A DNA stretch of 64,000 nucleotides from Candidatus Binataceae bacterium (GTDB taxonomy: Bacteria > Desulfobacterota > Binatia > Binatales > Binataceae), in contig DATKML010000029.1 in the NCBI GenBank assembly GCA_035541875.1, forward strand, positions 5,722-69,721. The letters are read 5' to 3'. Shown here piece by piece: positions 3,354 through 24,497 of this stretch (position 1 is the stretch's first letter; every line of letters begins with the position of its first letter). Both the position numbers and the translations under genes were made by a program. The notes under the pieces were generated by a model that saw only the letters and a list, made by a program, of their open reading frames with translations, did not search any database and had not been told where the DNA came from.

Positions 3354-5096
3354 TTAACGTCTTGCCGGGATTACCGGTAGCGTCAGATAGGACGCATTGG
3401 CGCGGTTGTGCAGAATCGTCTGAATCGCGGGCTGCGTCTCGGCGTCGGCGAAGAGATCGTGCCCCGTGTTGGGATTCCGATCGAAGCGCGGGAAGTTGCT
3501 CGAACTTACCTCGAGCCGAATACGATCACCCTTCTTGAAGAGAATCGAGGTCGACCACATATCGATCGTGTATTCGTAAACCTTCCCCGGCATTATCAGC
3601 TTGGGATCTGATTTCGATTCGCGCACGCGCGCCCGGATGATGCCGTCGGTGAGATTCATCGCAGAGCATCCGCATGGGCCGACGCTGACCAGCTTGGCTG
3701 TAAAGTCGGTGTCGGGCGCTGACGATGACGCAGAGAGAGTGAGCGAGACTGGTCCGGTGATTTCCGTATCCTCGGCCAGCGGCTCGGTCGTGTAGACGAG
3801 CACATCCTCGCGCTGCTCCAGCGCCGTTTGATCGAACGCACCGCCCGGCACTGCATTGTGATAGCAGCAGAGACCGCCGCCGTTGGTCGGTACCGGATTT
3901 AATGGATTGTAGAGAAAACAATCTGATGGTTCGTTGCCGGGTTGATCCGTCGAGAGCGCACCGTCACCGTTGAGGCTATTGGCGCGGCCGCGGCTATGCA
4001 GATAGTAGCGGCGGAAATCGGTGCCGGGCAGCGGCCAATCCTTCTCTTCACGCCAGCTGTTCGCGCCGATGGTGTAGATACTTACCGGGCCTTCGTTATC
4101 GGCACCGTTGTTGATCCCCTTCAGCCAGTGGTCGAAGAAGTTGAGCTGCTGGCCGTCGAAATCAATCGAGACGAAGCTAGCGCGGAAGCCCATATCGGCC
4201 TGACCGATAAGTCCCGTAAGCGGCAGATTGTGATACCACGGCCCCATCACGAGACGTGCCTTGCGACCGTTGCCCGGCGCCTTCGACCGCATCCCCATGT
4301 AGTTGCGAACTGTGCCGCCCGCGAAGATGTCGTACCATCCGCCGAAATTGAGCGTCGGCACACTGATCTTGTCGTAGTACTCCTCGATGCAAAGTTTCTT
4401 CCAGTAGCTGTCGTAGTACGGATGTTCGAGCCAGTCGTAGAAGTAGGGCGCGCCGGTGCGGAAGAGCGGAAAGTCCTTGAGCGGCAGATGCTTCACGATC
4501 TCGCGCATCGTATCGATATTGCTCATCGTGAGCGCCAGCTCTTTGCCTGCGGCCTCGCTGTCCTCGCGCTCGCGGATCAGGCGGGCGAGCGAAAGGTTCG
4601 TCATCAGCCAACTGACGTTGAAGAAGAGCGAGAACGCGCCACCCTGATAGGTCCAGTTGTCATGATAGTTGCTGGCCGTGATCGAAGGCACCATCGCCTT
4701 GAGCGAGGGGGGGGTCTGAGTCGCTGCGAGCCATTGCGTCGCGCCCATATACGATGCGCCGAACATCCCGACCTTGCCGTCAGCGAAGGGCTGCTTCGCG
4801 AGATGCTCGACCGTGTCGTAGCCGTCCAGCGGATCATCGGTGAAGCAGTTGAAGACTCCCGGCGAGGCATAGCGGCCGCGCGAATCGACGAAGATGACGT
4901 TATAGCCGCGCTGCGCCGCGCGTATCGGATCGAGGGTGTTGTACGAAATCTGCGGGAATTTCTTGTCGTAAGGCGTGCGATTCAGCAGCACCGGCAGCTT
5001 TTCAGGCGTGTCGGGCCGAAACAGATCGCCCTTTAGTAGGCATCCATCGCGCATCGGAATTTCGATATCGCGCTCGAAAATTACTTTCGCTCCCAT
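3354..5096 (-). CDS. CocE/NonD family alpha/beta hydrolase (X-Pro dipeptidyl-peptidase S15-like)
   Basis: 580 aa; N-terminus MRDGCLLKGDLFRPDTPEKLPVLLNRTPYDKK...GYNVIFVDSRGRYASPG...FGASYMGATQW is the CocE/NonD hydrolase signature, with a C-terminal beta-sandwich. Confidence 0.85.
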   Translation of the reverse strand: MGAKVIFERDIEIPMRDGCLLKGDLFRPDTPEKLPVLLNRTPYDKKFPQISYNTLDPIRAAQRGYNVIFVDSRGRYASPGVFNCFTDDPLDGYDTVEHLAKQPFADGKVGMFGASYMGATQWLAATQTPPSLKAMVPSITASNYHDNWTYQGGAFSLFFNVSWLMTNLSLARLIREREDSEAAGKELALTMSNIDTMREIVKHLPLKDFPLFRTGAPYFYDWLEHPYYDSYWKKLCIEEYYDKISVPTLNFGGWYDIFAGGTVRNYMGMRSKAPGNGRKARLVMGPWYHNLPLTGLIGQADMGFRASFVSIDFDGQQLNFFDHWLKGINNGADNEGPVSIYTIGANSWREEKDWPLPGTDFRRYYLHSRGRANSLNGDGALSTDQPGNEPSDCFLYNPLNPVPTNGGGLCCYHNAVPGGAFDQTALEQREDVLVYTTEPLAEDTEITGPVSLTLSASSSAPDTDFTAKLVSVGPCGCSAMNLTDGIIRARVRESKSDPKLIMPGKVYEYTIDMWSTSILFKKGDRIRLEVSSSNFPRFDRNPNTGHDLFADAETQPAIQTILHNRANASYLTLPVIPARR

Positions 5097-5277
5097 CAGC
5101 AGGTCCTCCAGTTACGCCGGATATTTCGATGCTTGTAACGCGGGCAGGTACGATGGAGCAAGGGAACCGAAACCCTGGAGTGGGTCGCGCGGGAGAGGTA
5201 GGCCGAGTTGGAGTCGGTTGGCAACGCCGCGCCGCCGATTCTATGATGACGTAAAGTTCAAGCAGGAGTTCCCAACG

Positions 5278-6210
5278 ATGCCAGTTGATGCTGAAATCGC
5301 CGCGTTCCTCAAACAGGCTGCCGATTCGGGTGCGCCACCGCTCGAGAGTTTGCCGGTGCCGCAAGCCCGCGAGTTCATCCGCTCGCTGTTCGCGCCTCCG
5401 GGAGCTGCACGAACCGAGGTGAAGAGGGTCGAAGACCGCAAGATTGATGTGAACGGCACCTCGTTGCCGATCCGCATTTACACGCCGGCAGGGGAGGGAC
5501 CGCTTCCAGTCCTTGTTTACCTGCATGGCGGCGGATGGGTTATCGGCGACGTCGAGGGTTACGATCCCGTATGCCGCGATCTCTGCAAAGGCGCAGGAGT
5601 GGTTGTCGTGTCGGTCGATTATCGGCTCGCTCCGGAGCACAAATTCCCGACTCCGGTCGAAGATTGCTACGCCGCGACCAAGTGGGTCGCAGCGAACGCT
5701 GCATTGATCGGTGGCGACTCGACTCGCGTGGCGGTCGGTGGCGATAGCGCGGGTGGTAATCTCAGCGCGGCTGTCGCGCTGATGGCGCGTGATCGTGGCG
5801 GCCCGTCCTTGAAGTTCCAACTGCTCGTCTATCCCGTGACCGATCACAACCTCAATACCGGTTCCTATCGGGCCAACGGCGAAGGCTATCTGCTGACGAA
5901 GGCCGGGATGGATTGGTTCTGGAATCACTACATCGGCAAGCCGGGCGACGATGCCAACCCGTATATGTCACCGCTCCGTGCCGCGAATCTGAGCAATCTG
6001 CCGCCTGCGCTCGTGATTACAGCGGAGTTTGATCCGCTCCGGGACGAGGGTGCTGCCTATGCTGAAAAGCTCAAAGGAGCGGGCAACAAGATCACCTATA
6101 CTGATTACAAGGGTGCGATCCACGGCTTCTTCAGCCTCGGTTATATGTTCAAGCTCGGCCGCGACGTGATGGCGGAGGCCTGCGCTGCGCTTCGCACTGC
6201 GCTGAAGTAA
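5278..6210 (+). CDS. Alpha/beta hydrolase fold-3 esterase/lipase (HSL family)
   Basis: HGGGW oxyanion motif (VYLHGGGWVIGD) and GDSAGG nucleophile elbow. The true start is the ATG at 5278; the 4975 ORF-track start is an artefactual extension overlapping the upstream gene. Confidence 0.85.
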   Translation: MPVDAEIAAFLKQAADSGAPPLESLPVPQAREFIRSLFAPPGAARTEVKRVEDRKIDVNGTSLPIRIYTPAGEGPLPVLVYLHGGGWVIGDVEGYDPVCRDLCKGAGVVVVSVDYRLAPEHKFPTPVEDCYAATKWVAANAALIGGDSTRVAVGGDSAGGNLSAAVALMARDRGGPSLKFQLLVYPVTDHNLNTGSYRANGEGYLLTKAGMDWFWNHYIGKPGDDANPYMSPLRAANLSNLPPALVITAEFDPLRDEGAAYAEKLKGAGNKITYTDYKGAIHGFFSLGYMFKLGRDVMAEACAALRTALK

Positions 6211-7128: not shown

Positions 7129-10100
7129 CTATTTGTCGGAACCTTTCAGCACAGTCTGCGCATTACCGGCAAGGGAATGCCCGTAAGCATAGTTGTATTG
7201 GAGAGTTTCCGGCGGCACCGCGCCCGGCGACGCATTTGCTTGTGGTGCAAATTCAACTTGTACCGTGCACTTTTTGACCGGAGGTGAAGCCTTCGGGTCG
7301 AGGATCGAGCCCGAGCAAAGGTCAGTGCCCGATACTATTGCGAAGTTTCCTGCACTAAACGCTTTGCCGGTGATCGTGACACTGACAGGTGAGTTGTTGG
7401 TTATCGTCAGCGTTTTCGGAGCGCTTCGATTACCCCGTGCGGTTAGCGGAAAACTCGATACTTTTGGCGCTGCGAGTGTTACCGGAATCGGAATTCCAGA
7501 CAGCGTCATGTTAGTGATGCCACCGTCATGCGGCACCGTCAGCGTCCTGGTTTCGAGTACTCCGGTCGGTGTCGTCGGCGTATAGGCCAGGCCGAAGCTG
7601 CACTTCTTCTTCGGTGCCAGTGTCACTCCCGAACAGAGGTTGTTGCTAATAGTGAAGTCCGATGAAAGGGCGGCCGCCGGCGGAACGATCAACCCAATCG
7701 TGGAGTTCGCTTTGCTCGCGTTGACAATCGTTACCTTGTGAACCTTGCTTGACGCGCTCGCGTAGACCTTGCCGAAGTTAAGTTTTGCCGGAGTGATCTT
7801 CAGATTGGCTAGGACCGTCGGCGTTGGCGACGGAGTTGGCGTTGCTGTCGCCGTCGCGGTGGCCGTCGGTGTCATCGTTGCTCCCGCGGTGGGAGTGGCC
7901 GTTTTGGTCGCGGTCGCTGTGGCGGTTCGCGTCGGCGTAGCGGTCGCAGTTCGAGTCGGGGTCGCTGTCGCAGTTCGAGTCGCTGTGGCCGTGGGAGTTG
8001 CTCCACTAGTTGATGTCGCAGTCGCTGTCGGAGTGTCCGTTGCCGTAGCGCTGCCGGAGGGCGTTGCGGTTGCAGTTACAGTCGCCGTGGCTGTGGGTGT
8101 CGCTGTTGCGGTAGCCGTTGCAGTTCGTGTCGCGGTAGCCGTGGCAGTCGCGGTAGCAGTCGCCGTAGGTGTGGGCGTCAATGTCGCAGTCGGCGTGGGC
8201 GTCGGAGTTGGGGGGGCCACTGCAAAGTGGTTGGCCACCTGGATGGAGCTGAGCGCATACGAGTAGACCGCCGCCTCGCTCACGCTTCCACTGAAAGCGG
8301 CGCTCGAGGGCGAGTTGGGCCATGCGGCCATGGTGCCGTACCCGACACGCCAGTAGCCAGCATAGTTAGACGGAATCGAATCGGTATGCGAAGCGATCTG
8401 AGCCCCATCAACATACAGATAGATATGGGTGCCGTCCCAGACGCCTACAGCATAATGCCAGTTGCCGTCGTTGTAAGCACTCGGAGAGAGAAGACCAAAG
8501 GTCGAGCTTCCACTGTTACCAAAAACGATATTACCCGCATTGGTCATGTAGAGCATCCGGTCGTAATTCGAGGTTCCGAGGCCGGTTTGCGCTTGCTGGA
8601 AGCCGATCAGTTTGCCGCCGCTGGCATAGCCATTAGCGGTTTTGAACCAAATTTCGATCGAGTACGGTGTGGGATTGGCGTATTGCATCGAGCTCGAAAC
8701 ATAGCCAGTCGAGCCGTCGAGCAGCACCGCTGTATCGCCGGTCTTTGCTGCGCCGGCAGCTCCGTAGGTTATTCCGCCGTTGAAACTCCCAAGGTCGAGC
8801 GGCCTTTGATATGTGCCCGTGTTCGAGCCCGTAGAATCGAAAGCGACGGTGCTGTTCGCTTCGTTGAGTTTCCAGTAGTAGCTCGGGGCATCAGCGAGAA
8901 CCGTAGCATCGTAGGATCCGCCAGCGGCTGCACTGAAGTGCGCCGCGACCCGACTCGAACTTAGGGCGGCTCCATAAACGGCCGCTTCACCGAGGCTGCC
9001 GGCGAAATAGGGGCTGGTAGGCCCGTTCGGCCAAAAATTGGTCTGACCGTAACCCAAGCGCCAATAGCCGCTGTAATTGACCGGCGCTGAATCGCTCAAC
9101 GATGCGACCTGCGTGCCGTCGATATACAGATGAGAGGCCGTTCCATCAAAGGCGCCTACAGCATGATGCCAGTTGCCGTCGTTGTAGCTGCTGGGCGAAG
9201 TAATTCCTGCGGTGGTTGTGCCGCTGTTGCCGAAGATGATCTTGCCGGCGTTGGTCATGTAGATCATACGGTCATAGCCCGCAGTGCCGAGTCCGGTCTG
9301 ATCTTGCTGGAAGCCGATCAGTTTGCCGCCCAGGCCGTAGCCGCTGGCTGTCTTGAACCAAACTTCTAGAGAGTAGCCGGCGGACCCGGGGTTGGTCAGT
9401 TGAATTGAGGTACTGACGTAGCCGTTGTTACCGTCGAGAGTTATCGCCGTATCGGGCGAAGTAGGCCCGGTTACGCCAAGCAGAACCTTCGGCGCCGAAT
9501 CTTGCGCAGTCGATCCACTCGATTCGTTGAGGCGCCAGTACACATCCGGTGAATCACTCATGACCAAACGGGCGTAGGCGTTCGGTGTAGCCGTAGGCGC
9601 TGCCGCCGTGGGTGTCACTGTTGGGGTAGCGGTCGCGGTGCGCGTCGGTGTGCCGGTCGGCGTGGTGGTGGCGGTCGCTGTTACAGTTGGCACTAGCGTA
9701 GGTGTCGCTGTAGCCGTGATCGTGGGCGTAGCGGTCCGCGTGGATGTGCTGGTCGCGGTAGCAGTGGCTGTCGTCGTGGGAGTCGGTGTTCCAGTCGCAG
9801 TTGAAGTGGCAGTAGCCGAGGCCGTCGCTGTTGGTGTGATCGTCGCAGTTGCGGTAGCGGTTCGTGTCGCGGTCCCGGTCGCTGTGGGCGTGACCGTACT
9901 AGTGGCTGTTGCAGTTGAAGTGCTGGTCGCAGTTGAAGTGGCAGTAGTAGTCACTGTCGGCATGATGGTCGCGGTGGCGGTGGCGGTTCGCGTCGCGGTA
10001 GCGGTCGCAGTTGCTGTTCTCGTTGCTGTCGCCGTTGCGGTAGGTGTTGGTGTCGTTGTAGGTACGGCTGTTGCGGTGACCGTAGCCGTCGCCGTCGGAG

Positions 10101-10734
10101 TTGGCGACAGGCTATTGATAAAAAGTTTGTCGATAGCAAAATCGCTGGTCGAGCATCCGGTTCCGGTGCAAGCCGTCAGGCTAAAGGTGACTGACGTGAT
10201 ATTCGTGCCGGAGTTGTCGTTAAGACCAAGGTAAAACGAATCGCCATTGGCGTTACTTGCCTGCGTGAAGCTGCCCAGCGAGGTGCCGTTATTGAAAGCC
10301 TCGATTTTAGCGGTGAAGGCACCGGAGGCATCGGCCTTGATCATCGCACCTGCGCCCGCGACCGGACTGGCGAAGGTTATCTGTAAAGGACCGTTACCGC
10401 CGTTGTAATCATCTGAAGTCCAGATCAGCGTATCGCCCGCGGTAAAACCCGAGACCCAGCTACACGGAGTAGCTGAACAGACCACGGCGGTCAGGCTGTC
10501 TGGTCCTGCGAGTGTCACCGTGACACTCTTACCGCCGGTCGTTGTGGCCGGATTCGTGGTGGCCAGCAAGGTCGCATCGGCACCCAGTTGCGACCAATCG
10601 ACCGTGTCGGTTGCGTTCTGCGCAGCTGAACTCGTCACTTGGACCAACGAGTCCGTCCATGCCGGCGGATTTGCCAGCAGTACAACCGCTAACGCTCCCA
10701 GTATCCAGGGCCAGATACGCTTGAGGCTTTTCAT
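7129..10734 (-). CDS. Giant secreted multidomain protein (~1200 aa): signal peptide, conserved ~180-aa Cys-containing N-domain, T/A/P linker, two tandem LamG-like (concanavalin-type) jellyroll domains, T/A/P linker, two C-terminal choice-of-anchor-D-like Ig-type domains
   Basis: Signal peptide [21 protein letters not shown] (start moved to 10734). N-domain shares [12 protein letters not shown]...[10 protein letters not shown]...[20 protein letters not shown] with the 12495..13124 protein. LamG-like repeats carry [10 protein letters not shown]...LDGNNGYV...NDGNWHH and [10 protein letters not shown]...LDGSTGYV...NDGNWHY. The C-terminal pair aligns with the C-terminus of the 14668..18237 protein. 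There is no PEP-CTERM, LPXTG or T9SS tail. Confidence 0.8.
7800..8240. repeat. Degenerate GC-rich short tandem repeats encoding a Thr/Ala/Pro linker ([19 protein letters not shown]...)
   Basis: Reiterated gtcgcggtagcggtcgcagt-type units; the antisense frame gives the spurious VAVAVAV ORF 7769..8266. Confidence 0.7.
8240..9530. repeat. Intragenic tandem duplication (~640 bp x2) encoding the two LamG-like domains
   Basis: DNA-level repeats, e.g. atgccagttgccgtcgttgta at 8461 and 9167, and gatcagtttgccgcc at 8611 and 9321; protein repeats are ~55-60% identical by eye. Confidence 0.6.
9530..10110. repeat. Degenerate GC-rich tandem repeats encoding the first Thr/Ala/Pro linker (~190 aa)
   Basis: Protein segment [42 protein letters not shown]...; the antisense frame gives the spurious ORF 9608..10234. 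Confidence 0.7.
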
Positions 10735-10763
10735 TGGCTTGGCTTCTCGAGGCTGCGTTGAGG

Positions 10764-11975
10764 CTACGAGCAAACGGCCTGAGTCGTTGTAAAGGTGCCG
10801 TTATTCGAATACTTGCCCCCGCTTCCGATGGACGGAGACTGGCGGAAGAACCATGAGTAAAAGGCAAGCTCCTGCAGATCGTAGGTGGTTCCGTTTGGCA
10901 TCAGCACCGATGTGAAGTTGGTGCCGCTGAGCGGATCTCCAACTTCAAGATTCGTTTGGCATCCCGACACTTGGCCGATATGCCCCCAGCTAGGCGTCGG
11001 ATTCGTGCCGAGCGGATCGTCCATCCACTCGCCCACTTCGTGTGACGCCGTCGTATTATCGGCGTGCGCACTAAGGTTGAAGAGTTCGGTACTGTCAAAA
11101 TCTAAAGGCGAGTAGGTTTGCAGGCTCGCGAGGGTTCCGTACGCCCCGTGATAACCAAGAATACAACAGTTGTTGGTTGGGCTGGACGAGACGAAAGGTG
11201 CCGCCTGAACCACGTTATGCATCAGGAAGATCGGGAAGGAGGTCGGGCCTACTCCACTGCTCGAGAGAGCGGTGATTTGTGCCTTGATGGCGCTGTCGAG
11301 CGTGGAGTAGTCGACGATACCCAGGCGCATCGATTGCGAAACGCCGTTGCATGCACCGCTGTAGAGTCCCGACGTTCCTAAGCCACTCGGGATCGTAATC
11401 GTGATTGGCGAAAGGGTCGTGACGTTGAGCAGTGTGTGATAGCGATCTCCGGTCGCAGAGACATTACCCGGCGAGCTGTAGAAACTGGCTCGTTGGAACG
11501 CGTCGACATATTGGGTCGTGCCCACGTTGACGCCGTTCATCGAGTAGGAAGCGTTGTTGAAGAGGGGCGACTGCTGAAACAGGGTCGTTGGGACTTTGCC
11601 GCCGAGGCAGGTATCGGCGATGGTTGGATCGAAGGTCTTGCCGTCGGGCGTCTTGATGATGGTCGGTATTAGATAGACCTGAATCGTCGTCGTGCGCATC
11701 CCGTTGTAGAATGGACTCCGACCAACCATCGAACCGGTGTAGGTGAGCCCGTTCACCGGCGAGGTGATTGAGTAATTCCACATCGGAATGGTGGTTGAGG
11801 ATACGACCGCTGACGCCACCTGAGCCTTCGTCATGCCGGTCAGCGGTTTGACGGTGTAGTAGCCCTGGAGCTGCTCTGTGCTCTGCGCATCAGCTGCGCG
11901 AACTCCTAAGCCAAGTCCGGAGCAAAATATTGCTATGAAACCTAAAATGGCTCGATGAGTAGATATCTTAGCCAT
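10764..11975 (-). CDS. Secreted ~400-aa protein of an uncharacterised family (paralog A) with an invariant [11 protein letters not shown] motif
   Basis: Signal peptide [25 protein letters not shown] with a GGGAGA RBS before the ATG at 11975. Throughout the length it is ~50% identical to the 13157..14413 protein (YxVKPLxGMT, [33 protein letters not shown][VI][18 protein letters not shown]). Its stop lies 30 nt before the start of the giant N-domain protein. Confidence 0.75.
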
Positions 11976-12444
11976 AACCGTCCGATTATCTCCCGATACG
12001 TGGTGTCTAGTTCCCAAGCATCGAATTACAAACTCAATCATCGGCAAGCATGTCTACAAGTTTAAACGAGTAGTAATGCTAGCTCTGATTCAATACTGCA
12101 CCTAATCTTAGGCGTTAGTCGTGCAGAATAGAACCCGAAAAGAGATTAGATGTTTAGAGATAAAAATTTAGGTTTAGGCATTTTTACAAAGCTTTCTTAG
12201 GCTTTGTTGGTATTAGTCAGCCGCTGATCGGCTTGGGGCGATGAAGAGCCACAGAATCTTTCGAGCGGGCTTAATTAAAAATGTGGGAGGCGAGCGATGA
12301 TCGTCGCCGTCGTGACCGCCTCGCACTTCAGGTTAAGGGGGAATCGGAGCCGTCGCGGCCCCTAACCCGGCAAGGCGGCCGTATCACGCGGTAACCCGAT
12401 AGAGCCTCGCACGAGGAGGGACTCCTGGAGCGAGGCTTTCGATC

Positions 12445-12475
12445 GGGGCGTTTCTCGCGAGCCGTTAAACGCCCC
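12445..12475. terminator. Hairpin GGGGCGTTT-ctcgcgagccgtt-AAACGCCCC, part of a three-hairpin GC-rich element at 12331-12476
   Basis: Perfect 9-bp stem just 3' of the 12495..13124 gene on the minus strand; see finding. Confidence 0.4.
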
Positions 12476-12494
12476 TGAAATTGGGGAGCCTCTC

Positions 12495-13124
12495 TCAGTG
12501 GGAGGTCTGGTTGACCTGGACTTTGTCGACGGCGAAGTCGGCGCAGCTCGAGAATTTTGGGCAGCTGCTCAGGCTAAAGACCACGCCCGTGATATTGGCG
12601 GCGGTGCTATCGAGCACGCCGATATAGATAGGATCCCCTGCTGTATCGCTCTTTTCGGTAAAGCTCTTCAGCACCTTGCCGTTCTGACGGGCTTGTATCT
12701 GTGCGGTGAACTGGCCGGGAAGATCGGCTTTGATGAGCGCCCCAGCCCCAAAGACGGGGGTTGCGAAAGTGAGGGTTAGGGGTCCATTGCCACCGTTGGC
12801 GTTATCCGAGGTCCAAAGCAGCGTATCGCCTGCGGTGAAGCCGGTTCCCCAGCTGCAAGGTGTTGCGGTACAGACCACCGAGGTCAGGCTGTTACTGCCT
12901 TTGAGTGCGACACTGACGCCATTGTTCAGCGCTGTATTTGCGGAGAACGACGCATTCAACACGGTTGCGTCAGCACCGAGCTGCGACCAATCGATCGAGT
13001 CGTCCGACTTCTGATTCGTTTGGTCTGTGATGAGCGTGAGCGTATCGGCGCGAGCGCTCGAGTTGAGCAGCACCGCGAGAGTCAGTCCCAGAAGCCAGAG
13101 GAATATGCGTTTGCCGTTGTTCAT
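12495..13124 (-). CDS. Small secreted protein (209 aa) consisting only of the conserved Cys-containing N-domain found at the N-terminus of the giant 7129..10734 protein
   Basis: Signal peptide MNNGKRIFLWLLGLTLAVLLNSSARA, then [16 protein letters not shown]...[56 protein letters not shown]...ITGVVFSLSSCPKFSSCADFAVDK, collinear with residues ~40-220 of the giant protein. Confidence 0.75.
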   Translation of the reverse strand: MNNGKRIFLWLLGLTLAVLLNSSARADTLTLITDQTNQKSDDSIDWSQLGADATVLNASFSANTALNNGVSVALKGSNSLTSVVCTATPCSWGTGFTAGDTLLWTSDNANGGNGPLTLTFATPVFGAGALIKADLPGQFTAQIQARQNGKVLKSFTEKSDTAGDPIYIGVLDSTAANITGVVFSLSSCPKFSSCADFAVDKVQVNQTSH

Positions 13125-13156
13125 GGTTCGATGCTCGTTGTGCTCGATTCCGAGGC

Positions 13157-14413
13157 CTAGCAGATCGGGCCGGCGTCAGTGCCAAAAGAGCCGCTATCAG
13201 AGAAAAGCCCTCCGGCAGCCATCGAGGGGTTCTGGCGATAGAACCACGAGAAGAACGCCAACTCCTGCACATCGTAGGTGAAGCCATTCATCACGATTGA
13301 AGGAAAGTTCGAACCACTAAGCGGATCGCCGACTTCGAGATTACCCTGGCAGCTACCGATCGTTTGGCCGAACCCTCCCCAGAGCGGAGCTGCATTGTTT
13401 GCAGTGCTCTTAACGCTGGCGGAAGGAACCGGATCGTCCAGCCACTCACCAATCTCATGTGAAGTCGAGGTGAGATCGACGCCGGAGCTGGGATCCCACA
13501 AGCCGGTAGTATCGAGATCCGCCGCGGCATAGGTCTGGACCTTGGCGAGACTCCCGAGCGCGCCATGGTAGCCGAGGATGCAGCAGTTTTGCGTAGGATC
13601 ATTCCGAACAAAGGGGAAAGACATTACGACATTGTGTGTCATGAAGAGCACAAACGAGGTCGGTCCGACGCCACTCTTCGCCAGCTTGGGAATCTGGGTT
13701 TTGGTCACGGCCTTGTCGAAGGTCGCGAAGTCGATAATCGCGGTCTCTTCGTGGTTGCAGGTGTTCGAAAAGGTGCCGTGAACGCCCTTTGTAGAGGGTA
13801 CGGAGATCGTTATAGGGGAGGCCATCGTGACGTTAAACAGCGTGTGATACCGATCGCCGGTTTTGCCGACGTTGCTCAGCATTCCTCCCGATGAGTTGTA
13901 GAAGTTGGCGCGCTGGAATGCATCGATGTACTGAGTAATTCCGATGAACTGTCCATTAATCGTGTAGTTTGCATCGTTAAACAGCGGCGATGCTTGCATC
14001 ACATCGACCGGGGTCTTGGTACTGCTCAGGCAAGCCGAGTCGATCTGGGTTGGGTCGAAGGTTGTGCCATCGGATAATCGGATAATTGTGGGAACCACAA
14101 AGACCTGGATGGTCGTCGTGCGCATCCCACCAGCCAACGGACTGCGTCCTACCATCAGCCCCTGATAGGTCTTCCCATCGATCGGTGAGACGATCGAATA
14201 GTGCCACATCGGGATAGTGCCCTTGACGGCGGTGGCGGTTCGCACATCGTCGATCGTCATACCCTCGAGCGGCTTCACGGCGTAGAACTTTTGAGGGCGT
14301 TTGGCGTGGGTAAAAGTGAAGGCCATCGCCCCCGACGCCGTCACGAGAAACGTGACAACCGCGGCCGCGATAAGAATAAGCGCGACGCTCCCTTTGAATG
14401 CAGCCTTGTGCAT
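13157..14413 (-). CDS. Secreted ~418-aa protein, paralog B of the SHE[VI]GEWxDDP family
   Basis: Signal/TM segment MHKAAFKGSVALILIAAAVVTFLVTASGAMA; AGGAAA RBS 10 nt upstream; SHEIGEWLDDP motif; 33-nt spacer to the downstream N-domain gene. Confidence 0.75.
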   Translation of the reverse strand: MHKAAFKGSVALILIAAAVVTFLVTASGAMAFTFTHAKRPQKFYAVKPLEGMTIDDVRTATAVKGTIPMWHYSIVSPIDGKTYQGLMVGRSPLAGGMRTTTIQVFVVPTIIRLSDGTTFDPTQIDSACLSSTKTPVDVMQASPLFNDANYTINGQFIGITQYIDAFQRANFYNSSGGMLSNVGKTGDRYHTLFNVTMASPITISVPSTKGVHGTFSNTCNHEETAIIDFATFDKAVTKTQIPKLAKSGVGPTSFVLFMTHNVVMSFPFVRNDPTQNCCILGYHGALGSLAKVQTYAAADLDTTGLWDPSSGVDLTSTSHEIGEWLDDPVPSASVKSTANNAAPLWGGFGQTIGSCQGNLEVGDPLSGSNFPSIVMNGFTYDVQELAFFSWFYRQNPSMAAGGLFSDSGSFGTDAGPIC

Positions 14414-14604
14414 AGACTCGGTTTCCTTAGACCCTCACGCTCAAATTTCGACGCATCGTTCTCATCCGAGCGCTAATCCAACAATCCGTACTGATTCGCG
14501 TCTATTAGTTAAAAGAGAGCTTCTATTTTGCGATCATAGGTCATTAAACGTTGTAGGCATACTCGCTTTCCGAACTCTCTTTGCGCGCGATTTGCCAAAT
14601 GAGA

Positions 14605-14639
14605 GCGGCGTCCTCCCCGCCAGAGTGGGAGAACGCCGC
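14605..14639. terminator. Hairpin GCGGCGTCCTCCC-N9-GGGAGAACGCCGC 3' of the SBBP-repeat gene
   Basis: Near-perfect 13-bp arms located 29 nt after the stop at 14668. Confidence 0.45.
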
Positions 14640-14667
14640 TGTTAAAGTCCGAAGGGCTAGCCGTAGT

Positions 14668-17600
14668 TTATTTGGCCGTCCCCTTGAGAGTTACCGAGAC
14701 GCTTCCGTTGAGCACAGGACCTGAGCCATAGCTGAACGGATAGGTCAGGGTCTCAGGTGTCACCGGCCCGGACGGCCCATCTGGTTGGAAAGCCACCTGC
14801 ATCGTGCACTTTTTGCTCGCTGCCGGAGGTGGTCCTAACACGGCGTTGGTGCACTGATCGGCGCCGTGGACTAACACGAAGTTCGTCAGTGAGCCAGGAG
14901 CTCCTACAGTTATCGTCGCTCCCGACGTATTCGTGATCGTGACCGTCTTCGGCTTGCTCAAGGTGTTGATTGCGGTCGCCGGAAAGCTCAGGGTTTTGGG
15001 CGCGCTGACGGTCGGCGCGATACCAGTGCCACCCAGGCTGACCTGCAGTGGACCCGCTCCGTTGTAACTAATCGTGAGGTTGCCGCTCACAGACGGGCTG
15101 CTCACCGCGTTCGGCGCGAACGCTACCCCAATTTTGCACGATCGCTTGAGCGATAATGTGCTCGTACAGGTGTTCGACGCTATCACGAACTGCGAGATCG
15201 GCGCCGCCGAGTTCACGCCGGTTATATTCGCGTCGACCTTGCCACTGTTGATGATGGTCACCAGTTTTGGTTTCCCGGTCAGACTTGCGGTCACTTTGCC
15301 GAAGTCGATCTTGGTCGGCGACACTTTCAACACCGCAGGCGAAGGCACACCGGTCGGCGTCGCAGTTGGTGTGGCAGTTGCCGTCGCTTTTGACGTGCTG
15401 GTCGCCGTAGCCGTTGGAGTGGCTGTGCGCGTGGCCGCAACGGTCGGCGTTGCCGTGGCTGTCGGGGTCGCGGTTCGCGTCGGCGTCGCGCCCGAGGTCG
15501 CAGTGGCCGTCGCGGTTGCGGTCGGCAGGCCTGTCACGCCCGGTGTCGGGCATGGCGATGAATCGGTGCTCGTCGGATTGAGTACCGTCAGGAATGCATT
15601 GGACGACGCGTTGGCATCTGCGTTGTTGCTCTTCTGAAAGCCCGTCGTAGTCGTCGGAAAATCGGTCGAGAAGGTGAGCCCGGCGATGACCATATTGCCG
15701 TTCGGGTCCAGCTTTCCACCGGACGCAACATCGAGTTCACCCGAGCCACCAAGCAAACTGGAGTACAACAGTTGGTTTTTCGAAGTACTCAACTCCGCGG
15801 CAAAACCAGTAATAGGGATGTTGTACTGAAGCGTCCCGAGAACAGGAAGGTTAACGTCGAACGGAAAGCCGCTGGTGTTGTTCGTCTTGAAGCAAGCGTT
15901 GGCGGAGAGCGGAAAGGTTGATCCGGTTGAAGCAGCGCTGGCCGTGGCCCCAACGAAGTACACGTTACCACCGACAACTTGGAGGTCCGTCACTACGTCG
16001 CCAAAGCCGACTCCACCCGTGCACGGCGCCGGTGCCGTTATCTTATAACCGGTTCCGCCGAAGTAGGTGGAGTACAGGAACTGCCCAACGCCCGGGGCTA
16101 AACTCGGGTCGATTTCGGTGAGGAAGCCAGTCGTGGCGGGTGCTCCCGAGGTAACAGCGGCTTGGTTGGTCGATTGGAAAACGGGCATGACAGATCCAGG
16201 TACAGGGAAATTGCCTGTCGAAGCGGTGAATCCGGCCAGCCAGATTTTGTTGGAGCTATCGACCGCGACTGAGGTAGCGACATCGCCGACCGCGAAGAGA
16301 TTAACTTTGCTCCCCAGACAACTGACTAATCCCTGACTGCCGTTACCACCCTCGTAGGTCGCGTAAAGTAGTGAGGCGGCCCCGCTGGCACTCGGATTGA
16401 ACTCGGTGACGAAGGCGTTGCTGGTCTTGTTGACCTTACCGTTGTAGTTAGGCTGCGCCGCATTTTTTGTTGTCAGCCCGGTCAGGGAGTAAGTTGCGCC
16501 GGCGATATACCCATTACCATTGGCATCGACCGCTATCCCTATTCCCGACTCGGAGTTAGTGCCGTTACCATTACCGCCATAAAGTGTTGCGTAGTCCAGC
16601 GACTTGCCATCCTCGTGGACCACGAGAAAAGTTGCCTGACTCTTTCCACTTGTGGCCAAGTTGGTCGATTGGAATGCGCTCGCTGTTGTGGGAAAGCCTG
16701 TGGTGCTGTCGCTTTGTGTGCTGCCTGCAACATAAGCTTTACAAGCCGCTCCAACTCCACACCCGGAGGGGAATAGAGCCACGCGTGATTCGGTGGCGTT
16801 ATTTTTGCCGGGGACAAAGCACGAGTAGACCAAGCCACTGCCGTCGGGTTTGAGCTTGATAACGAACCCATTGTTCGTCGCCGCTGAGCTTTGGTTCATG
16901 CTGCTTCCCCACGCACCACACAGTGATGAAGGTGGACCCGGAAAATCCGATGGGGAGTAGGTTTGCCCGACAACGAAAGCGTTACCTCCGGCGTCGACCG
17001 CGATGCCGAAAGCAAGGTCGCCGTCGCCGCTGCCGACCGAACTCGTATCACCACTGCCGCCGAAGTAGGTCGAGTATACTAGGGATGCTGCCCCGGATTT
17101 CGAGTAATCGAATTTGCTAACGAAAGAATTCGGATTCGAAGAGGCTGCCGCGTTTTGGCTGGTTTGGAGAACGCCGGTGCTAGTTGGAAAATCCGTGGAA
17201 TAAGCGACGCCGGTCACCCACGCGTGGTTGGCGTTATCTATCGCGACGTCAGAGCCGACGTCAGCCACAGTTAGGGCAGCACCTCCGGTAACGCCCGCAA
17301 ATTGCTCAAGGTTTACGGTGCCGGTGATATCGCCGGTACCTCCGATATAGCTCGAATAGACCAGCTCTACGCCGGGATCGATTACGAGGGTGCGGGTGCG
17401 ATCATAGGCGGCTAGCTGAAGGCCGATCTCGGTGGTGGAGGCTTTTTTCCGCATCGCGAACTTGCCGTCGATCGGATCGCGGGTACCGTCGGCGCGGGTC
17501 TGGTAAATCACGGGATTGCGGATCATCAGGCTGCCGGCAACCGCTGCCACGTGGATATTGCCGTCGCTGTCGACGTTGGTGGTGCCATCGCCGTCGATTA

Positions 17601-18237
17601 TCAACTTGATTTTTGAGACGTCGGCTCCCGGCTTCGCGACAATGTCGTACTCGAGCTTGTCGGGTGTGCCGTAATAAACGACATCAACTCCCGGATAGAC
17701 CTCTTCCAGTTTAACTTTGCCGAAAGTGGGAATACTACGATGGTACTTGGTCGGATCGGCGCCGATCAGGTAGTTGACCCGCGCCTGGAGCGGTTCGAGG
17801 GGGGCGTACTTCGGATGAGCGTTGCCGCCTGCGAAACGCACCCGGATATTCGATTCAACGAGTCTGTCTTCGGGCTTCTGCTGTCCTGTAATCGAATAAA
17901 ATTGTGGTCCCTTGTGGATTGTGCCACCGACCATCGAGACCAGAGTTCCCTGATCACCAAGGAACACCGTGGAACGTGGTGTTCGCGAGAGGTAGTGGAC
18001 GCTCGGGTCGGATTGGCCGTCGTTGCGCTCGAAGTAGAGCGGCAGTGCGGCAAACTTCGCTATCGCCTCGGTCCGGCTCATCGTATTGTGATCGAGCGGA
18101 TTACCGACGGACGGCTGCGACGCTCCGGCCACACCGCGCGAATGGATAAAGGTTCCTAGGGCGATAGTGACGACTATGGCCGAAGCAAAAGTCAGCTTCC
18201 TGCGACGCAGGGTCGAGGTGACAGTAGAGAAAAGCAT
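14668..18237 (-). CDS. Giant secreted SBBP (beta-propeller) repeat protein with a T/A/P linker and two C-terminal choice-of-anchor-D-like domains
   Basis: 1189 aa; signal/TM N-terminus. Repeated YSTYFGGSGD..GIAVDAGGNAFVVG..S.DFP-type units (SBBP repeat, PF06739-like). The C-terminal ~225 aa align with the C-terminus of the 7129..10734 protein (KVSPTKIDFGKVT..., CTSTLSLKRSCKIGVAF, KKCTMQVAFQP). Confidence 0.8.
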   Translation of the reverse strand: MLFSTVTSTLRRRKLTFASAIVVTIALGTFIHSRGVAGASQPSVGNPLDHNTMSRTEAIAKFAALPLYFERNDGQSDPSVHYLSRTPRSTVFLGDQGTLVSMVGGTIHKGPQFYSITGQQKPEDRLVESNIRVRFAGGNAHPKYAPLEPLQARVNYLIGADPTKYHRSIPTFGKVKLEEVYPGVDVVYYGTPDKLEYDIVAKPGADVSKIKLIIDGDGTTNVDSDGNIHVAAVAGSLMIRNPVIYQTRADGTRDPIDGKFAMRKKASTTEIGLQLAAYDRTRTLVIDPGVELVYSSYIGGTGDITGTVNLEQFAGVTGGAALTVADVGSDVAIDNANHAWVTGVAYSTDFPTSTGVLQTSQNAAASSNPNSFVSKFDYSKSGAASLVYSTYFGGSGDTSSVGSGDGDLAFGIAVDAGGNAFVVGQTYSPSDFPGPPSSLCGAWGSSMNQSSAATNNGFVIKLKPDGSGLVYSCFVPGKNNATESRVALFPSGCGVGAACKAYVAGSTQSDSTTGFPTTASAFQSTNLATSGKSQATFLVVHEDGKSLDYATLYGGNGNGTNSESGIGIAVDANGNGYIAGATYSLTGLTTKNAAQPNYNGKVNKTSNAFVTEFNPSASGAASLLYATYEGGNGSQGLVSCLGSKVNLFAVGDVATSVAVDSSNKIWLAGFTASTGNFPVPGSVMPVFQSTNQAAVTSGAPATTGFLTEIDPSLAPGVGQFLYSTYFGGTGYKITAPAPCTGGVGFGDVVTDLQVVGGNVYFVGATASAASTGSTFPLSANACFKTNNTSGFPFDVNLPVLGTLQYNIPITGFAAELSTSKNQLLYSSLLGGSGELDVASGGKLDPNGNMVIAGLTFSTDFPTTTTGFQKSNNADANASSNAFLTVLNPTSTDSSPCPTPGVTGLPTATATATATSGATPTRTATPTATATPTVAATRTATPTATATSTSKATATATPTATPTGVPSPAVLKVSPTKIDFGKVTASLTGKPKLVTIINSGKVDANITGVNSAAPISQFVIASNTCTSTLSLKRSCKIGVAFAPNAVSSPSVSGNLTISYNGAGPLQVSLGGTGIAPTVSAPKTLSFPATAINTLSKPKTVTITNTSGATITVGAPGSLTNFVLVHGADQCTNAVLGPPPAASKKCTMQVAFQPDGPSGPVTPETLTYPFSYGSGPVLNGSVSVTLKGTAK
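15343..15570. repeat. GC-rich tandem repeats encoding a T/A/P linker in the SBBP protein
   Basis: Protein [64 protein letters not shown]; the antisense frame gives the spurious ORF 15074..15637. Confidence 0.65.
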
Positions 18238-23009: not shown

Positions 23010-24497
23010 ATGGCAGCAAAGCCAAATATCCTTATTCTGTGGGGCGACGATATCGGCTGGTGGAACATCAGCTACAACAACCGCGCGCAGATGGGCTACC
23101 GGACTCCGAACATCGATCGGATCGGTAACGAGGGTGCGACGTTCACCGATTACTACGGACAGCAAAGCTGCACCGCCGGGCGCGCGGCCTTCATAACGGG
23201 TCAGAACCCGATACGATCTGGCCTGACCAAGGTGGGGATGCCCGGTGCCAACGTCGGCCTTCGTGCAGAAGATCCGACGATAGCGGAATTGCTGAAGCCG
23301 CTAGGCTATGTCACTGGGCAGTTCGGCAAAAACCATCTGGGCGACAAGGATGAGTTTTTGCCGACTGTGCACGGCTTCGATGAGTTTTTCGGCAACCTCT
23401 ACCACCTCAATGCGGAGGAAGAGCCGGAGGATCCCGATTACCCGAAAGATCCCGAGTTCAAAAAGCGCTTTGGTCCGCGCGGCGTGCTTCACAGCTTGGG
23501 GGACGGCAAGGGCGCTCAGACCATCGAGGACACCGGGCCGCTGACGAAAAAGCGGATGGAAACGATCGATGAGGAAGTTACTGAACGGGCTCTGAATTTC
23601 ATCGATCGTGCCCACAAGGACGGACAACCGTTTTTCGTCTGGTACAACACTACCGCCATGCACTTTCGTACGCATTGCGCGGAAAAGCATAAGGGTAAAA
23701 GCGGGCAGGGCGATTACAACGACGTGATGGTTGCACACGACGAGTACATCGGTCGGATGCTGGCTAAGCTCGACGAGCTCGGTATCGCCGAGAACACGAT
23801 CGTTCTCTATTCGACTGATAACGGCCCGCATTACAACAGCTGGCCGGATGCCGGTATCACGCCATTTCGCAGTGAGAAAAACACCAATTGGGAAGGTGGA
23901 TGGCGAGTGCCCATCTTTCTACGATGGCCGGGTAAAATCGAACCTCGCCAAGTCTATAACGATCTCGCTTCCCATCAGGATTGGCTCCCGACCTTGCTAG
24001 CTGCCGCAGGGGAAACCGATATCGCGCAGAAGTTGCTCAAAGGCCACACGATCGGGAATCGAACCTACAAGGTCCATATCGACGGCTACAATTTGCTTCC
24101 TTATTTGACCGGAGGTGAGAAGAAGAGTCCGCGCCAGTTCTTTTTCTATATCAGCGATGATGGCGATGTTTTGGGGCTGCGTATGGGAGACTGGAAATTA
24201 GTTCTCATGGAGCAGCGGGCCAAACAGCTGGCGTGCTGGTTTGAGCCATTTGTTAAATTGCGGGCTCCCAAGATGTTCAATCTGCGGCGCGATCCCTTTG
24301 AGCGTGCGGACGAGAACTCCAACACGTATTGGGACTGGGTCATCTCCCACGCTTACCTCCTTTATCAGATGCAGGGCTTCGTGGCGCATCAGATACAGGC
24401 GTTCAAGGATTTCCCGCCGCGGCAGAAGCCAGCGGCGTTCAACCTCGACGAAGTCTTGCGCCAGGTCACGGACCTATCAGGCAGCGGCTACCATTGA
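23010..24497 (+). CDS. Arylsulfatase-family (alkaline phosphatase superfamily) enzyme with a non-canonical CTAGR active-site motif
   Basis: ILILWGDDIGWWNIS...GYRTPNIDRIGNEGATFTDYYGQQSCTAGRAAFITGQNP...GQFGKNHLGD; the position of the CxPxR formylglycine motif reads C-T-A-G-R. Confidence 0.85.
   Translation: MAAKPNILILWGDDIGWWNISYNNRAQMGYRTPNIDRIGNEGATFTDYYGQQSCTAGRAAFITGQNPIRSGLTKVGMPGANVGLRAEDPTIAELLKPLGYVTGQFGKNHLGDKDEFLPTVHGFDEFFGNLYHLNAEEEPEDPDYPKDPEFKKRFGPRGVLHSLGDGKGAQTIEDTGPLTKKRMETIDEEVTERALNFIDRAHKDGQPFFVWYNTTAMHFRTHCAEKHKGKSGQGDYNDVMVAHDEYIGRMLAKLDELGIAENTIVLYSTDNGPHYNSWPDAGITPFRSEKNTNWEGGWRVPIFLRWPGKIEPRQVYNDLASHQDWLPTLLAAAGETDIAQKLLKGHTIGNRTYKVHIDGYNLLPYLTGGEKKSPRQFFFYISDDGDVLGLRMGDWKLVLMEQRAKQLACWFEPFVKLRAPKMFNLRRDPFERADENSNTYWDWVISHAYLLYQMQGFVAHQIQAFKDFPPRQKPAAFNLDEVLRQVTDLSGSGYH

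Follow-up and report, generated by a model that had tools for sequence, protein, structure and literature searches.

Two secreted proteins encoded in a 64,000-nucleotide (nt) stretch of DNA from Candidatus Binataceae bacterium (the window) belong to a family, here termed family X, that appears from its sequences to combine a zincin-like HExxE site with an otherwise unclassifiable framework, and whose function is not established. The interval 10764-14413 of the window holds three genes, all on the minus strand: paralog B of family X, a secreted protein of 209 amino acids (aa) and paralog A of family X. Coordinates are positions in the window, and residue numbers refer to paralog B unless stated. 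The HExxE residues, a following Asp, a Gln and a downstream ExxD pair are near-invariant across the family and, in eight members, have been replaced together. The explanation preferred here, to which somewhat less than an even chance is given, is that X would be a secreted metal-dependent hydrolase with a zincin-like site in which His has been replaced by Glu, and that a partner protein would tether or target it at the cell surface.

The original prediction described SHE[VI]GEW[ML]DDP as an invariant motif and named three further motifs common to the two paralogs. All four are found in each paralog (Table 1). Conservation was assessed in 300 non-redundant family X domains (<=90% identity), reaching down to ~32% identity, and six positions (H319, E320, E323, D327, E360 and D363) were treated as the core. 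The motif was upheld far beyond the two paralogs, although 'invariant' is slightly too strong, with 14 of the 300 members differing at one or more core positions; the string in the window is the local version of a generalised family motif, [STA]-H-E-[VIL]-[GA]-E-W-x-[DN]-D-P. Conservation was 98% each for H319, E320 and D327, 97% each for E323 and D363, 99% each for E360, C128 and C355 and 95% for Q350, while P328 was present in all members (100%) and H283 in all but one (~100%, 299 of 300). DRYH was the weakest of the four motifs, with D187 at 26% and R188 at 36%. Four cysteines (C128, C219, C355 and the C-terminal C418) were invariant in a 113-sequence alignment and are near-invariant across the family. 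A further pair, C277-C278 (nt 13577-13582, with an equivalent pair in paralog A; 92% and 88% conserved, respectively), is adjacent and lies just before H283; in the 113-sequence alignment, both were replaced together in 8 members and a single one in 5. A vicinal disulfide is one candidate role for this pair, and paired thiol ligands are another.

The pattern of exceptions is informative about the site. All six core residues were kept in 286 of the 300 domains, one was lost in five, two were lost in one, and three to five were lost at once in eight. Under independence, 0.05 members with three or more losses would be expected. Q350 was changed in the same eight sequences (P0122, P0139, P0214, P0239, P0269, P0046, P0082 and L075:1-1197; ~2.7% of family members). 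The replacements include H319N, E320Q, E323G, D327N and D363Y in P0122, E320Q, E323A, E360D and D363Y in P0139, and E320A, E323A, D327N and E360D in P0269. These eight members are still full length and keep their cysteines, including C128 and C355, together with G89, P143, P328, W390 and H283. Since the residues are lost together while fold-defining residues stay, HExxE...D...Q...ExxD appears to be a co-dependent unit that forms a single functional site, and the eight site-loss members are probable pseudo-enzymes. Their retained length and structural set indicate that the fold is not dependent on the six core residues, and the decay of E360 and D363 along with the HExxE residues ties the NLEVGD motif to HExxE. 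Because the same members retain H283, the NCCILGYH motif that contains it is suggested to have a different, possibly structural, role.

A first AlphaFold model, built from 40 sequences, was mediocre (predicted local distance difference test score, pLDDT, 68.8), and a second model of paralog B, built from 113 diverse sequences, was confident (pLDDT 92.4, predicted template modelling score 0.90). In the latter, HExxE lies on a helix (residues 315-326) that ends at D327-P328. By helical periodicity, H319, E323 and D327 (i, i+4 and i+8) and the adjacent E320 fall on one face of this helix, and I321, W324 and L325 make up a hydrophobic face opposite. Strand 277-288 carries H283 at its centre, and E360 and D363 are in a loop or short turn right after C355. 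The motif helix is preceded, in order, by strand 223-228, a long helix (229-247) and four strands, an arrangement that is compatible with the upper subdomain of zincins but is not specific to them; the zincin layout of strand, backing helix, sheet and active-site helix has been described elsewhere (bioRxiv 10.1101/2025.10.18.683246). In a mean-field direct coupling analysis of contacts between the motif segments (323 sequences, effective number 248), the strongest couplings came from gap and indel columns and were artefacts.

Family X is large and uniformly unannotated. The family search returned >2,811 matches at 90% clustering, and an exhaustive profile search gave 2,186 clusters at 50% identity (E <=1e-3), of which 798 had E <=1e-30. 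There were 496 matches among species-representative genomes, and the best 80 of these, which provide the locus counts below, all came from metagenome-assembled genomes, of Binatia, Acidobacteriota (Terriglobia, Bryobacteraceae), Udaeobacter, a few Proteobacteria and Solirubrobacteraceae. Every member with a source name is a 'hypothetical protein' (paralog B is 100% identical to one of these, P0001, from Candidatus Binataceae), and none has a precomputed Pfam domain. Some members are fused to immunoglobulin (Ig)-like, FG-GAP, fn3/TIG, Kelch or DUF5648 modules. On the basis of the Sec signal peptides, the four near-invariant cysteines and the fusions to surface modules (Ig, FG-GAP, fn3, TIG), X is predicted to be extracellular and disulfide-stabilised. 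Neither a carbohydrate-binding module (CBM) nor a protease-associated (PPC) domain was present in any of 20 multidomain X proteins examined, so the accessory domains point to no substrate.

Both X genes of the window are followed by a gene encoding a second type of secreted domain, the partner domain. The 209-aa protein, which starts 32 nt past the stop of paralog B, is 53% identical (E 2e-66) to the N-terminal ~200 aa of a large partner protein that starts ~29 nt past the stop of paralog A, and ~30 nt thus separates X and partner in each pair. The two X paralogs share 55% identity over 380 residues (E 6e-148). These two similarities show the region to be a tandem duplication of a two-gene unit consisting of X and the partner domain. 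Within the window there are exactly two copies of each domain, and all four proteins have Sec-type signal peptides at the N-terminus.

The association extends well beyond the window. Manual inspection of three loci showed a partner domain at the start of the gene directly downstream of X (50-55% identity, E ~1e-60), and a hidden Markov model of the partner detected it immediately downstream of X on the same strand in 44 of the 80 loci, with 84-215 nt between domain matches. No other conserved neighbour was found across the 80 loci; an M1 peptidase, an alpha-amylase and a glutamine synthetase were rejected as linked neighbours, their proximity being local synteny among near-identical Binataceae genomes. 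One further locus has the same X-partner-X-partner tandem as the window (L038:6019-10401), and another carries three X genes in tandem ahead of a single partner (L033:5830-10687). Such copy-number variants in other Binatia suggest recurrent local duplication of the module.

Fusions provide a second line of evidence for the pairing. Seven independent 50%-identity clusters (P0142, P0146, P0149, P0157, P0164, P0191 and P0223) carry a single open reading frame (ORF) that encodes, in order, a signal peptide, the partner domain, PEP-CTERM, a second signal-like hydrophobic segment and X, and one of these was verified at the DNA level as a continuous ORF (L086:173-2488). The PEP-CTERM, comprising a PEP motif, a transmembrane helix and an Arg-rich tail, was found in all seven fusions. 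As each fused half keeps its own export signal, the fusions argue for joint action of X and its partner outside the cell. It is unusual for an exosortase sorting signal to lie mid-polypeptide; its presence there would imply dual processing that yields two proteins or, alternatively, a membrane-looped precursor.

Scans of Pfam, NCBIfam and PHROGs with both paralogs and the partner found nothing. No relative of the partner domain was found in Pfam, in NCBIfam (including the named choice-of-anchor families) or by profile search of the PDB, in which the partner profile gave only spurious antibody matches. A relationship with X was also considered and rejected (hhalign probability 1.6%). The tails that follow the domain are interchangeable: among 44 relatives, they were absent or consisted of PEP-CTERM (16 of 44), Big_3_5, Cep192_D4/ASH-type Ig, List-Bact-rpt or DUF11. 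Pairing with swappable anchors is the defining behaviour of choice-of-anchor domains, which are, with PEP-CTERM/exosortase cargo proteins, the nearest known counterparts of the partner; in contrast to such cargo, neither partner protein of the window has a PEP-CTERM, and the domain matches no named choice-of-anchor model.

We infer metal binding, hydrolysis, the assignment of ligands and the role of the partner as follows, the proposed mechanism being drawn by analogy with the zincin HExxH enzymes. The active site would consist of H319-E320-x-x-E323 and D327 on one helix face, supplemented by Q350, E360 and D363, which lie in the loops after it. A divalent metal would be held by H319 and E323, separated by a single helical turn, and by a third carboxylate (E360 or D327), E320 would be the general base that activates a metal-bound water, and D363 and Q350 may serve as second-shell or transition-state residues. 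X would act extracellularly with the partner domain encoded immediately downstream. Since it carries interchangeable surface anchors (PEP-CTERM, Ig-type repeats or none), the partner would most plausibly tether or target X at the cell surface; alternatively, it may be a substrate or an inhibitor of X.

Zincins (MEROPS clan MA) include the gluzincins, such as thermolysin and family M1, and the metzincins, such as astacin and snapalysin, with the motif HExxHxxGxxH/D. Family X resembles them in having a His-Glu-x-x-ligand motif on a helix (HE[VI][GA]E, compared with the common zincin HE[ILF]GH) in which the His follows a small residue, the Glu precedes a hydrophobic one and position +3 is Gly or Ala. 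It is also secreted, has downstream acidic residues (E360-x-x-D363, compared with thermolysin NExxxD) and shows a compatible order of secondary structure ahead of the motif helix. It differs in that Glu takes the place of the second His ligand, the N-terminal half is large and beta-rich, and a histidine on a strand, H283, is conserved. Position 323, at which zincins require His, is Glu in 97% of the 300 members and never His. No metzincin third ligand was found, as position +7 is not Gly and position +10 is neither His nor Asp, and the helix stops at D327-P328. X is therefore not a demonstrable member of clan MA: it has no second His, no canonical third ligand, no Met-turn and no homology, and its likeness to zincins is a local one.

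Several further results weigh against the hydrolase reading. The gluzincin 'glutamate helix' is absent, with E360 sitting in a loop or short turn, and so is a Met-turn, the Met near position 374 not being conserved. Neither paralog had a Pfam or NCBIfam match even at E <=1, and a Pfam scan of the 113 aligned members at E <=10 gave singleton noise with nothing recurrent and no peptidase family. PDB searches with the single protein, a full-length profile and a profile of the C-terminal half returned only spurious Fab or antibody matches, and the C-terminal half of X, compared by hhalign with an M1 gluzincin profile (of low diversity, from neighbouring genes), gave a probability of 0.1%. Foldseek found no significant fold match for the confident model in the PDB (best E 0.94, TM-score ~0.1) or in BFVD (best E 0.035, an uncharacterised phage protein). 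Zinc peptidases (the M30 protease lugdulysin, carboxypeptidases, a poxvirus metalloprotease and an M34 endopeptidase) recur among the top matches of the Foldseek list, but these matches are non-significant and the recurrence is only a hint. In 36 of the 80 loci, mostly those of more distant X members, there is no partner within 6 kb, which means that the partner is not essential to X. The candidate site is rich in carboxylates (four or five Asp/Glu, one Gln and one His), a composition that would be no less suited to Ca2+, Mn2+, Fe or a non-catalytic binding role than to Zn2+. This composition and the complete lack of homology call for caution. The original prediction of a possible new metallo-hydrolase or lyase site is partly supported and plausible, but the chemistry is unproven.

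A resemblance to other zinc peptidases was also considered. The M14 carboxypeptidases (HxxE...H) and the M28/glutaminyl cyclase fold demonstrate that catalytic zinc can be ligated by His together with Glu, as the putative X site would require, and the strand His ligand of M14 is comparable to H283. However, their HxxE lies in a loop, whereas the HExxE of X is on a helix, and there is no sequence similarity. An M14- or M28-type exopeptidase was rejected for X, as the motif spacing differs and the Foldseek matches to carboxypeptidases T, A4 and B and glutaminyl cyclase were non-significant (E 1.7-3, probability <=0.08, ~55 columns). The broader proposal that X founds a new extracellular metallohydrolase clan, with a fold unrepresented in the PDB, an HExxE...ExxD metal site and a two-component arrangement with an exosortase- or Ig-anchored partner, widespread in uncultured soil Binatia and Acidobacteriota, is considered doubtful.

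It is unlikely, but deserves weight, that the site is non-catalytic and binds a metal or other ligand, for example by using Ca2+ or Fe to hold a sugar or some other molecule, with X as an adhesin or lectin head and the partner as a second binding module. E320, E323, D327, E360, D363 and Q350 form a carboxylate-rich set typical of Ca2+ sites, the modules fused to X (Ig-like, FG-GAP, TIG, Kelch) are of the adhesion type, and the partner has few invariant polar residues and acts as a 'choice-of-anchor' surface domain. HExxE is, moreover, a periplasmic Fe(III)-binding motif in the Salmonella protein PmrB, for which Fe3+ binding has been demonstrated experimentally (PMC4358008). PmrB has the same string in an extracytoplasmic protein and may serve as a precedent for metal binding by it, albeit in an unrelated context: those of PmrB and BqsS (RExxE) are short motifs within a sensor-kinase loop, non-enzymatic and non-homologous to X, and have no counterpart of D327, Q350, E360 or D363. 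A literature search for 'HExxE' found only these iron motifs and a preprint on CLCA1 in which the string is apparently a slip for HExxH, and no paper was found that joined PEP-CTERM, metalloprotease and Acidobacteria. A binding role is harder to reconcile with the close likeness of the [STA]HE[VIL][GA]E helix to catalytic zincin helices, with seven near-invariant polar residues over ~30-70% identity, which is more typical of catalysis, and with the lack of similarity between X and lectin or CBM families in the scans.

An enzyme that acts on polysaccharide or another non-protein polymer, as a hydrolase or lyase using Glu/Asp acid-base catalysis with possible assistance from Ca2+, is judged improbable. 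PEP-CTERM systems are associated with exopolysaccharide production. The several invariant carboxylates would be compatible with such chemistry, and the family is secreted and occurs in soil Acidobacteriota and Binatia, groups with an abundance of polymer-degrading enzymes. However, none of the 20 multidomain members had a CBM, X showed no similarity to glycoside hydrolase or polysaccharide lyase families, and there was no conserved carbohydrate-active neighbour, the alpha-amylase and a polysaccharide deacetylase occurring only in a block of closely related genomes. Polysaccharide had been suggested as a target of X, and these results lend that suggestion no support.

X could instead be a peptidase for which the partner is not an anchor but a cognate inhibitor, an immunity protein or a specific substrate; this is a variant of the hydrolase reading rather than an exclusive alternative, and it too has a low probability. 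Protease-inhibitor operons of this layout are well known, as in the serralysin-inhibitor and staphopain-staphostatin pairs. The X-then-partner order is tight and conserved, in the window as in the 44 loci, and the partner is small, secreted and probably all-beta. Very long surface extensions or PEP-CTERM anchors are, by contrast, frequent among partners and unusual for inhibitors, the 36 X genes without a partner would have to do without one, and a match of one of 44 members to the I36 inhibitor family (E 0.079) was noise. The proposal that X acts on the partner domain is upheld as far as the association itself is concerned, which is strong (44 of 80 loci and seven fusions), but a substrate relationship is not supported. 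That the motifs are purely structural and stabilise the fold with no ligand or catalytic role is very improbable: part of the conservation is clearly structural, since H283, the four cysteines and a number of Gly, Pro and Trp residues are conserved to the same degree and retained by every member, but the eight members that replaced three to five core residues kept the structural set and full length, and a charged cluster on one helix face is atypical of core packing.

The features of the region are given in Table 1. Two start positions were revised. The ORF of paralog A as listed begins at a TTG (12047), and the homolog P0004, which begins MAKISTH, places the real start at the ATG at 11975. 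The large-partner ORF as listed (1214 aa) similarly begins at a TTG (10773) and overlaps the end of paralog A, and the ATG at 10734 is the likely real start. The antisense strand of the linkers in the large partner yields long spurious Val/Ala/Gly-rich ORFs at 7769-8266 (+) and 9608-10234 (+). The gene directly upstream of paralog B, also on the minus strand, encodes a secreted protein of 1189 aa, the C-terminal Ig pair of which is visibly similar to the C-terminus of the large partner; the five genes from 7129 to 18237 look like a single surface-protein cluster. Three hydrolases flank the region and are probably unrelated to the X-partner module, because they are not kept beside X in other genomes. 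A scan for promoters and terminators gave counts no higher than the shuffled expectation.

Table 1. Positions of the family X genes, their partners, the shared motifs and flanking genes in the window
Feature	Position	Strand	Description
Paralog B of family X	13157-14413	minus	418 aa; Sec signal peptide ~aa 1-31, then mature domain of ~385 aa
Partner protein, 209 aa	12495-13124	minus	signal peptide and ~190-aa partner domain (~nt 12504-13052); C-terminal anchor absent
Paralog A of family X	10764-11975	minus	403 aa counted from ATG at 11975
Large partner protein	7129-10734	minus	about 1201 aa from ATG at 10734 (~1,200-aa product); in order, signal peptide, partner domain (~nt 10111-10662), long low-complexity Thr/Pro/Ala-rich linkers, two Laminin_G_3, C-terminal Ig pair of choice-of-anchor-D/Cep192_D4 type
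SHEIGEWLDDP, paralog B aa 318-328	13430-13462	minus	H319, E320, E323 and D327 on predicted helix, ended by P328
NLEVGD motif, paralog B aa 358-367	13313-13342	minus	E360 and D363; directly after near-invariant C355
NCCILGYH motif, paralog B aa 276-285	13559-13588	minus	C277, C278 and H283; predicted strand
DRYHTL, paralog B aa 187-192	13838-13855	minus	Y189 (91%) and H190 (89%) the sole well-conserved positions among the 300 members
Paralog A counterpart of SHEIGEWLDDP (11 residues)	11013-11045	minus	motif match
Paralog A counterpart of NLEVGD motif (10 residues)	10923-10952	minus	motif match
Paralog A counterpart of NCCILGYH motif (10 residues)	11142-11171	minus	motif match
Paralog A DRYHTL	11430-11447	minus	motif match
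Secreted protein, 1189 aa	14668-18237	minus	N-terminal DUF7948, long Gly/Ser/Thr-rich middle, TP-rich linker, C-terminal Ig pair
S15 X-Pro dipeptidyl-peptidase	3354-5096	minus	flanking hydrolase
Alpha/beta-hydrolase esterase	4975-6210	plus	flanking hydrolase
Sulfatase	23010-24497	plus	flanking hydrolase

Binatia and Acidobacteriota are abundant, mostly uncultured soil bacteria, and the function of much of their secreted repertoire is unknown. Family X, a large family that Pfam, NCBIfam and the PDB all miss, nonetheless has a sharply defined, testable site signature and a conserved partner. If X proves to be a non-catalytic binding domain, it would still be a new and abundant domain family deserving a database entry. 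If it is an HExxE-ligated metallohydrolase, it would extend the known chemistry of zincin-type sites, and the X-partner module, including the fusions with an internal PEP-CTERM, would be a new example of exosortase-sorted proteins recruiting enzymes. Family X would then represent a new class of extracellular enzyme with relevance to how soil organic matter is turned over or how the cell surface is remodelled.

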